Assembly: GCF_045037415.1 (NCBI RefSeq)
Contig: NZ_CP173438.1
Length of the DNA: 64,000 nucleotides
From: Escherichia coli
GTDB taxonomy: Bacteria > Pseudomonadota > Gammaproteobacteria > Enterobacterales > Enterobacteriaceae
Reading direction: 5' to 3' (one strand)
The position numbers are program-made. The first letter of the stretch is position 1. Each line of letters opens with the position of its first letter. Shown piece by piece: positions 36,001 through 39,000 of this stretch.

Positions 36001-39000
36001 TGAACCAGGATATCGATGAACTGCATTTTGCCCCGTTGAAAATCGACCAGCAACTGGCAACCGTAGCTGTGATTCACCAGCAGCATATGCGCAACATTGC
36101 GCAGTGGTTGCAGGCAAACGGCATCACCCGCGCTACCGTCGCGCCGGACTGGATGTCCATTCCTTGTGGGTTTATGGCTGGCGATGCGCGACGGGTTATC
36201 TGCCGCATCGATGAATGCCGGGGATGGAGCGCCGGGCGGGCGCTGGCTCCGGTCATGTTCCGCGCACAGCTCAATGAGCAGAATTTACCGATTTCACTAA
36301 CCGTGGTCGGCATTGCACCGGAAGAACTGTCTGCATGGGCTGGTGCGGACGCGAACGCCTGACCGTTACGGCTCTGCCCGCCATTACCACTTATGGCGAA
36401 CCGGAAGGGAACCTGCTAACAGGGCCGTGGCAGCCTCGTGTCAGCTACCGAAAACAGTGGGCGCGCTGGCGGGTGATGATTCTGCCGATATTGCTGATTC
36501 TGGTTGCGCTGGTAGTGGAACGGGGCGTGACGTTATGGAGCGTCAGCGAACAGGTGGCGCAAAGCCGCACCCAGGCGGAGAAACAGTTCTTAACGCTATT
36601 CCTGGAGCAGAAGCGGATTGTGAATTTACGCTCTCAGATGACGATGGCGCTGAAAAAATATCGCCCACAGGCCGACGATACCTGGCTGCTCGCAGAATTG
36701 TCAGCGATCGCCAGTACCCTGAAATCAGCGTCACTTTCCGACATCGAAATGCGTGGTTTCACCTTTGATCAAAAACGCCAGACGCTTCACCTTCAGCTAC
36801 GGGCTGCGAACTTTGCCAGCTTCGACAAACTGCGTAGCGCACTGGCGGCAGATTATGTTGTGCAACAGGACGCGTTACAGAAAGAGGGTGATGCGGTTTC
36901 CGGCGGCGTAACGTTGCGGAGGAAATAACATGTTACGCGATAAATTTATTCACTATTTTCAGCAATGGCGTGAACGCCAGTTAAGCCGTGGCGAACACTG
37001 GCTGACACAACACCTGGCGGGGCGTTCTCCGCGTGAAAAAGGCATGTTACTGGCAGCGGTAGTGTTCCTGTTTAGCGCCGGATATTACGTCCTCATCTGG
37101 CAGCCGTTGAGCGAACGGATAGAACAACAGGAGACGATGTTGCAGCAGCTGGTGGCGATGAACGCGCGACTGAAGAGCGCCGCGCCGAATATTATTGCGG
37201 CGCGAAAATCCGGCACGACAACGCCAGCACAGGTATCGCGGGTCATCAGCGACAGCGCTTCCGCGCACTCTGTGGTCATCAAACGGATTGCCGAGCGTGG
37301 GGAGAATATTCAGGTCTGGATAGAACCTGTGGTGTTTAATGACCTGCTGAACTGGTTAAAGGCGCTGGATGAAAAGTACGCGCTGCGGGTGGCACAAATT
37401 GATGTCAGTGCGGGTGAGAAGCCTGGGATGGTGAATGTGCAGCGACTGGAGTTTGGGCGGGGGTAGGTATTGCCATTTCCTTAACCCCACCTGATAACCC
37501 TTAGCCCAATGGTGAGTGCGGAACTGTCAAACCCGCTCACCGGGCTGAGTTTCGATGTAGCAAGAATTATCTCCCTCCAGACCACCACGGAATATTCGGT
37601 AACACTGAAGGAACCTGTTTTTCACCATGTAGCCTTCGTTAATCGACACCTTTCTCAGACTGTAAAGTTGCTTAAGTGTTTTGACACATTATGATTATTA
37701 ATAGTTGTAATAAATCATTGAGTAACAATTGATAGGCCAAAACATATAGGATAATTCTAGTGTGATCTGTATTTTGTGTAACCTGGAAGTTAGTAAAATT
37801 CCTGGAGATAATCAGAAAGGGAATTTCAAATAAGCATAATAATTTCCAGTGAAACTATTCGTCGATTTTAAGAAATGTCTGCTCAGGTATATCTACTGAG
37901 GGATGGTGTTGGTTGTAACACTGGTTAAAATAAACACACAAAAATAATCAAGATGTATATTTTAATCGACAAAAATAATTACTCACGGAATTATTGATGG
38001 GTGTTAAATAACACCGTTTAAATGTGATGTAAATCACAAATGTGACTGTAAAGAGGGTGCTGTAGATATAAATAAGAAGTACATGAGTGAATTTTAAATA
38101 GGGAAATAGTTTCTTGCTAAACAATTTATTGGTAATCAATCGCATGCGTTCTGGTTTGAGATAGATTACAGGTGTTACTACGCATAAAATTCATGGGTGG
38201 TATTATAATCAAGTAGTTAACAGTAATAGTGAAAAATAATTTCTTGCGAAATTAGCGGCCCGTTTTGAATAAGTGTGTTCCGGAGTAATCCAGAACGCAT
38301 GCTGCTTTACATCTTTTTCAAGCCATATTGGTTAAGCAAAAAGAAGTAGAAATAATTTCCTGAGAAATTAACTCAACATTCTGAAACGGCCAGTTTTCTG
38401 AAATTACCAGAAGACCGAATACATTCATGCCTGAAGAATGGATTAGAAGAAACGAGACGGAAATAGATCTATTTATCCCTGCGGAAATAATTTCTGCTGA
38501 AATTGTTTGCGGCTATTAAAAAGGTCAAACCGTCTGACTAAATTTTATCCAGTTACAAACAAGTATTACCTCCAGTGTATTGGTAGCTGTTAAGCCAGGG
38601 GCGGTAGCATACCTGAAGAGAATAGGATCACATCACCAAATGGCAAGAAGTGGATTTGAAGTCCAGAAAGTCACCGTAGAGGCATTATTTCTACGAGAAA
38701 TACGAACACGCTTTGGTAAGTTCCGTCTGGGATATCTGTGGGCGATTCTCGAACCCTCTGCGCATTTGCTGATACTGTTGGGCATTTTTGGTTACATTAT
38801 GCACCGCACGATGCCAGACATCTCGTTCCCGGTGTTTTTACTTAATGGCCTGATTCCCTTTTTTATCTTTAGCAGTATCAGCAAACGTTCTGTAAGTGCT
38901 ATTGAAGCGAACCAGGGGCTGTTTAATTATCGCCCAGTAAAACCCATCGATACGATCATTGCGCGCGCCCTGCTTGAGACGCTGATTTACGTTTCTGTTT

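Follow-up and report, generated by a model that had tools for sequence, protein, structure and literature searches.

Does the short motif just ahead of kpsM in the group 2 capsule locus of Escherichia coli belong to a functional operon polarity suppressor (ops) element, and does expression of the capsule synthesis genes farther downstream rely on it? We addressed this question in a 64,000-nucleotide stretch of E. coli DNA (assembly GCF_045037415.1, contig NZ_CP173438.1), referred to here as the window, which contains a complete group 2 capsule locus with kpsFEDUCS and kpsMT flanking a serotype-specific region 2. An earlier note on this DNA had placed an exact ops octamer at 38600-38607, about 33 nt before kpsM, and, on the background that ops recruits RfaH so that transcription reads through region 3 (kpsMT) into region 2, had taken the element to support dependence of region 2 expression on read-through from this leader. 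Our analysis bears this out. With a probability of about 95%, the octamer is the core of the ops element of group 2 capsule regions 3 and 2, and this ops forms the 3' terminus of a JUMPstart element.

Identity and conservation of the ops element

The octamer GGCGGTAG was found as an exact match at 38600-38607 on the + strand, where the earlier note had it, and the distance to the kpsM ATG was 32 nt, in line with the ~33 nt of the note. The ATG was placed at 38640 by mapping from the identical loci of ATCC 25922 and CFT073 as annotated in RefSeq; a TTG-initiated open reading frame (ORF) from 38580 is no more than an in-frame upstream extension that arises from mechanical listing of ORFs. From the full 12-nt ops, GGCGGTAGCATA, 28 nt remain to the ATG, the same spacing as the 28 bp upstream of kpsM given in a review of group 2 capsules (PMC8960920). 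The element lies between yghD and kpsM in the untranslated leader, 28-40 nt upstream of the annotated ATG, and its strand is the non-template strand shared with kpsM, kpsT and region 2. RfaH is not loaded at ops-like sites inside genes in CFT073 (PMC9765446).

The Rfam JUMPstart model RF01707 is matched over its full length (model positions 1-38 of 38, gathering score 35 bits; Table 1), with the octamer in the 3' part of the match, and this is the sole match to the model in the window. Homologous kps leaders scored 53.6-58.5 bits, and the JUMPstart block of the window is 97% identical over 36 nt to the block upstream of the O-antigen cluster in an unrelated strain. To follow conservation we used an alignment of 12 yghD-kpsM leaders from at least 5 lineages, with identities to the window down to 78%, 11 of which reach ops. 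The 8-nt ops core was invariant in all 11. Conservation was 96.8% for JUMPstart, 100% for the ops core and 94.6% for the 28-nt segment from ops to the ATG, whereas the remainder of the leader reached 87.2% and the sequence ahead of the predicted start site 80.3%. Thus, the ~100 nt before kpsM are nearly invariant among leaders that are 78-84% identical overall, and no insertions or deletions were seen between ops and the ATG in the aligned leaders.

Further evidence comes from CFT073 data that can be mapped onto the window. The kps locus of CFT073 (c3698) carries the same GGCGGTAGCATA, an identical JUMPstart-to-ATG segment and a region 2 that is ~100% identical. The two leaders differ at one base, 37987 (A vs. 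G), in the center of palindrome copy 2 (see below), a difference that is not material, and the window is slightly closer to ATCC 25922 and Ecol_AZ146, to which it is near-identical, than to CFT073. Chromatin immunoprecipitation sequencing (ChIP-seq) of CFT073 by Hustmyer et al. (2022) lists GGCGGTAGCATA at 3529321-3529332 as RfaH-bound in the wild type (PMC9765446). The RfaH peak at this locus, 3518505-3529799, is 70.9-fold and the highest in that genome (PMC9765446).

The ops core is also intact at the level of single positions, including G5, T6 and the C3:G8 pair. The 13-mer that spans ops is predicted to fold, when single-stranded, as ..((....)).. (-0.7 kcal/mol, z -2.0), a mini-hairpin of the non-template strand with the pairs G2:C9 and C3:G8 and the loop GGTA. 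The same hairpin is present in the crystal structure of RfaH with ops, where G5 and T6 are read directly and T6 is flipped out (PMC5995543).

Some caveats apply to this reading. Compared with the canonical ops, GGCGGTAGCGTG, the kps ops has A at position 10 (38609) and at position 12 (38611). T11 is present, but the T11-G12 flank of the consensus pause is incomplete, and Zuber et al. (2018) found that all tested single substitutions in ops except G2C lower the effect of RfaH (PMC5995543). In the same study, G12C abolished the U11 pause in vitro, but not RfaH recruitment (PMC5995543). Judged from the sequence, the kps ops may pause RNA polymerase less strongly than the waaQ or rfb ops does. The frequency of the octamer is by itself within chance, and the rfaH gene lies outside the window. 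Finally, RfaH occupancy and RfaH-dependent progression of RNA polymerase (RNAP) are taken from the literature on the essentially identical CFT073 sequence and would apply here by analogy. Apart from these caveats we found no evidence contradicting the ops/RfaH reading, which is based on observed sequence features, context, conservation and identity to CFT073.

Comparison with known elements puts the substitutions in perspective. The canonical element (waaQ/rfaQ, O-antigen/wzx and wza) shares the 8-nt core and T11 with the window and has the pause-promoting G12. Position 12 is G in the O-antigen JUMPstart, whereas it is A in every kps leader examined (11 of 11). A10 is restricted to the K2 lineage and strain E69, with a leader that otherwise shares 84% identity with that of the window; the K1-type and most other aligned leaders have GGCGGTAGCGTA, with G10. 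The ops of hlyC, GGCGGTAGCATG, shares A10 with the window and is RfaH-bound in CFT073, but keeps G12 (PMC9765446), and the distance from hly ops to the first gene is 634 nt, as compared to the 40 nt between the start of the kps ops and the kpsM ATG. Despite A10 and A12, the kps 12-mer is found at the strongest RfaH ChIP peak of CFT073 (PMC9765446). Because this exact 12-mer is RfaH-bound, the T11-G12 flank is not strictly defining for an ops element.

A possible role of the conserved block as RNA

The conserved block could instead act mainly as RNA, either as the JUMPstart stem-loop or through ops RNA that occludes the ribosome-binding site of kpsM and is relieved by RyhB, and not as a DNA signal for RfaH. 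The Rfam JUMPstart model does contain a 5-bp RNA stem, and G/A variation at 38598 preserves its closing pair (U-G or U-A). Moreover, a study of avian pathogenic E. coli (APEC) K1 predicted pairing of RyhB with ops and showed RyhB-dependent activation of a kpsM 5' untranslated region (UTR)-gfp fusion, although the RyhB site was predicted without compensatory mutants (PMC11988350). On the other hand, when we looked for an RNA structure that joins ops to the ribosome-binding site, the 121-nt ops-kpsM RNA was no more stable than shuffled sequences (z +0.92; 158 of 200 shuffles as stable), and the centroid fold leaves both JUMPstart and the ribosome-binding site unpaired. Recruitment of RfaH via the non-template DNA is, by comparison, structurally and genetically established (PMC5995543). 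We therefore regard a primarily RNA-based function as improbable. The two layers are not mutually exclusive, and an RNA role would at most be added to the recruitment of RfaH by ops.

Transcription from region 3 into region 2

Region 2 lies on the strand of kpsT and is separated from it by 11 nt (kpsT stop at 40082-40084, then GGAG and the first region 2 ATG at 40096). We looked for a discrete intrinsic terminator or promoter at this junction or inside region 2, and none stood out above chance. Across 37.4-48.0 kb, 5 terminator-like sites were found vs. 4.5 expected, and 65 promoter-like sites vs. 56.2 ± 6.6 in shuffled sequences, both at chance level. The short gap, the common strand and the lack of a terminator or promoter signal above chance therefore indicate that region 2 is expressed largely from the kpsM leader transcript, in agreement with the earlier proposal that it relies on read-through from this leader.

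Read-through by RfaH-modified RNAP, the other part of that proposal, is supported by the RfaH and RNAP data from CFT073. The RfaH peak covers c3698 (kpsM), c3697 and c3696-c3692 and continues antisense into c3691 (kpsS) (PMC9765446). Mapped onto the window it corresponds to 38133-49427. In the ΔrfaH mutant of CFT073 the RNAP travelling ratio was 0.1-0.34 of wild type and RNAP occupancy dropped towards background, and the kps operon is coated by H-NS/StpA in this strain (PMC9765446). K5 genetics likewise show that downstream expression depends on RfaH (summarized in PMC8960920). We would refine the proposal in one respect: read-through is here a matter of sustained processivity along ~7.6 kb of AT-rich, H-NS/StpA-coated DNA, and not of passage through a terminator at the boundary. 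As a separate observation, the RfaH signal up to about 49427 implies that convergent, RfaH-modified transcription crosses all of kpsS in CFT073.

The opposite arrangement, where region 2 is transcribed mainly from internal promoters of its own and ops serves only kpsMT, appears highly improbable to us. Many pairs of sigma-70-like hexamers do occur in the AT-rich region 2, genes silenced by H-NS commonly contain cryptic internal promoters (Hustmyer et al., PMC9765446), and the transcription unit (TU) predicted from CFT073 RNA-seq stops at c3694, while the RfaH signal goes on to c3692 (PMC9765446). However, promoter-like sites are not enriched, as the count above shows, only 11 nt separate kpsT from region 2, and RfaH moves with RNAP over all five region 2 genes, with RNAP near background in ΔrfaH (PMC9765446).

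Other copies of the octamer

Three copies of the octamer are present in the 64 kb, as compared to 1.20 ± 1.08 expected, and at least three were obtained in 11 of 100 shuffled sequences. The other two copies, at 3786 and 48576, lie within coding sequence and lack a JUMPstart context, and both were rejected as further ops elements. The first is inside a 567-aa ORF (3133-4836). The second, in the 12-mer GGCGGTAGCGAG, is antisense within kpsS, has A at position 11 and is probably non-functional as ops; in the CFT073 catalogue it is listed at 3519345-3519356 as an in-gene site that has no RfaH call of its own (PMC9765446). The strand of GGCGGTAGCGAG is the non-template strand for read-through from region 2 into antisense kpsS.

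That the copy at 38600 is likewise a functionless chance occurrence might be argued from the unremarkable total and from two of the three copies evidently being such, but it is practically ruled out by the 39-nt JUMPstart match (E 1.9e-9) in which this copy sits, its invariance among diverged kps leaders and the binding of RfaH to the same site in CFT073, ChIP-seq data that already refute chance.

A model for RfaH loading at kpsM

With the 38600 copy taken as a genuine ops element, the following sequence of events can be envisaged. Transcription would start at the PR3 promoter ~850 nt upstream and run along the untranslated leader. When RNAP reaches ops, the non-template strand in the transcription bubble would fold into the G2:C9/C3:G8 mini-hairpin and present G5 and T6, while RNAP may hesitate near U11, the presumed pause position. 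RfaH would then bind both the hairpin and RNAP, replacing NusG, and from a point 28 nt ahead of the kpsM ATG onwards the modified RNAP should resist backtracking and Rho. The RfaH complex would probably also recruit a ribosome to kpsM, and the modified RNAP would finish kpsM, kpsT and then the ~7.6 kb of region 2 that is coated by H-NS/StpA.

The long leader and its palindromes

The kps leader is much longer than those of rfaQ and wzx, with ~817 nt ahead of ops in kps vs. 27-67 nt at the other two (PMC9765446). The TU start predicted from CFT073 RNA-seq, 3530138 (PMC9765446), maps to 37794 and gives an 846-nt UTR. In K5, PR3 is located 741 bp upstream of kpsM (PMC8960920), which maps to ~37782 under the assumption that the K5 leader is as short as those of K1 type. 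For the window's strain, a start at 37782-37794 is accordingly predicted. In the diverged leaders, conservation at 37740-37829 is 0.90-0.93 vs. ~0.8 upstream. The K5 and K1 kpsM operons (Stevens, Clarke & Roberts 1997; PMC8960920) resemble the window in the 28-bp spacing, the JUMPstart and the order PR3, long UTR, ops, kpsMT and region 2. They differ in region 2, which consists of neu or kfi genes in K1/K5 and of K2 glycerol-phosphate genes in the window, and K1-type leaders lack exactly one ~117-nt unit of the window leader.

Predicted folding of the leader RNA (37794-38645) gave a minimum free energy (MFE) of -209.6 kcal/mol vs. -179.8 ± 6.9 kcal/mol for dinucleotide shuffles (z -4.3), none of the 20 shuffles being as good. 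Such structure could protect the transcript against Rho until RfaH is loaded, which happens at the 3' end of the leader. Six palindromes of the form AAATAATTTC-N4-GAAATTA are spaced 116-136 nt apart between 37841 and 38504, and the window as a whole contains three perfect matches, all of them inside the leader. The palindrome arms are 95.7% conserved, as compared to 62.1% for the 4-nt centers and 87.2% for the rest of the leader. The array was rejected as a recent tandem repeat, since Tandem Repeats Finder reported no repeat and alignment between units (mean column identity 54%) is confined to the palindrome core, with no similarity beyond it. No double compensatory changes in the palindromes were seen in the 12 leaders, only single changes that are wobble-compatible or pair-breaking. 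The palindromes may be RNA hairpins or regulator-binding sites, and covariation does not separate the two.

A scan for the palindrome pair in 100,044 genomes, one per species, returned 27 loci, of which only the two in Escherichia are kps leaders; none of the matches outside Escherichia carries the kps-type ops 12-mer GGCGGTAGCNTA. YbdO has been reported to bind a fragment made up of the 300 bp upstream of kpsM in K1, which includes copies 5 and 6, with no mapped site. Our literature text search, which did not include Xue et al. (2009) on the PR3 leader, returned no description of the leader repeats, and they may already be described. The array could be a functional partner of ops that sets the number of polymerases reaching ops and compensates for a weak pause. 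In such a partnership the palindromes could be RNA hairpins that block Rho and slow RNAP, or docking sites for a regulator such as YbdO, SlyA or MprA, but we consider this idea unlikely.

Organization of the locus

The features discussed above are listed in Table 1. According to the RefSeq annotation of ATCC 25922, Pfam and the ORF map, regions 3 and 2 are co-oriented and convergent on region 1, with kpsSCUDEF on the minus strand. The gene yghD ends at 37466 and is followed by a 1173-nt intergenic region up to kpsM, where an AGGA is found 11 nt from the ATG. Gaps between the region 2 genes are 15, 53, 102 and 5 nt. The flanks have about 50-58% GC, as compared to 40-44% for kpsMT and 27-35% for region 2. 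CFT073, to which region 2 is ~100% identical, is the K2 prototype, and this region 2 is present in 140 of 5426 complete genomes.

Table 1. Coordinates of capsule locus features in the window.
Feature	Position	Strand	Remarks
PR3 promoter / transcription start zone	37740-37800	+	putative
Untranslated kpsM leader, ~846 nt	37794-38639	+	34-36% GC; no annotated gene between yghD and kpsM
Palindrome copy 1	37841-37856		AATTTC-N4-GAAACT
Palindrome copy 2	37977-37992		AATTAC-N4-GGAATT
Palindrome copy 3	38108-38123		AGTTTC-N4-TAAACA, degenerate
Palindrome copy 4	38238-38253		perfect, AATTTC-TTGC-GAAATT; unit absent from K1-type leaders
Palindrome copy 5	38354-38369		perfect, AATTTC-CTGA-GAAATT
Palindrome copy 6	38489-38504		perfect, AATTTC-TGCT-GAAATT; 10-bp hairpin in leader MFE and centroid folds
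JUMPstart element, 39 nt	38573-38611	+	Rfam RF01707, 53.6 bits, E 1.9e-9
ops 12-mer, GGCGGTAGCATA	38600-38611	+	8-nt core 38600-38607; T11 at 38610, predicted pause
kpsM, ABC-2 permease, region 3	38640-39416	+	Pfam PF01061, E 5.6e-15; RefSeq WP_000124284.1
kpsT, ABC ATPase, region 3	39413-40084	+	Pfam PF00005; 4-nt overlap with kpsM
Region 2, K2-type, five genes	40096-47728	+	GC 27-35%
Region 2 cytidylyltransferase	40096-40491	+
Region 2 TPR/LicD-like protein	40507-41742	+
Region 2 TPR-CDP-glycerol glycerophosphotransferase-GT1, 1266 aa	41796-45596	+
Region 2 XcbB/CpsF-like protein	45699-46727	+
Region 2 hypothetical protein	46733-47728	+
kpsS, region 1	47890-49128	-	Pfam PF05159; convergent
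ops-like 12-mer, GGCGGTAGCGAG	48576-48587	+	inside kpsS, antisense strand; A at position 11

Other observations were made in the surroundings of the locus. On the yghD side, 33812-36928 contains, in this order, a frameshifted IS4-like transposase, gspK without its 5' part and gspL with a frameshift. Decay of the type II secretion operon beside the capsule locus is therefore evident in this lineage. The small RNA (sRNA) STnc490 (35165-35288, + strand, Rfam 120 bits) lies between the frameshifted transposase and the truncated gspK, and a second sRNA, C0719, was found at 31694-31915 on the - strand (Rfam 298 bits). Just upstream of region 1, from about 57239 onward (window ORFs 57431-59476, - strand), there is a frameshifted toxin gene of the AbiEii/AbiGii family, whose annotated coding sequence is cut by the end of the reference locus; it is part of the type IV toxin-antitoxin system for which co-inheritance with group 2 capsule loci was reported recently (PMC12488582). 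Farther away, the ATCC 25922 annotation places spt serine palmitoyltransferase, an acyl carrier protein, an NAD-dependent epimerase and a fatty acyl-AMP ligase at 18633-22744 on the - strand, adjoining an LptG-like permease. Together these genes look like a cluster for the synthesis of sphingolipid-type lipids, something unusual in E. coli.

Significance

The kps ops is an already known element of an established family, and it has been demonstrated experimentally on essentially identical sequence. With the element in textbooks since 1997 and the genome-wide demonstration on essentially the same sequence in 2022, its recognition in the window has annotation value only. For the locus, recognition of ops predicts a single RfaH-dependent transcription unit made up of kpsMT and the K2 synthesis genes. 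Through this element the capsule, which contributes greatly to virulence and serum resistance in extra-intestinal E. coli, is tied to RfaH.

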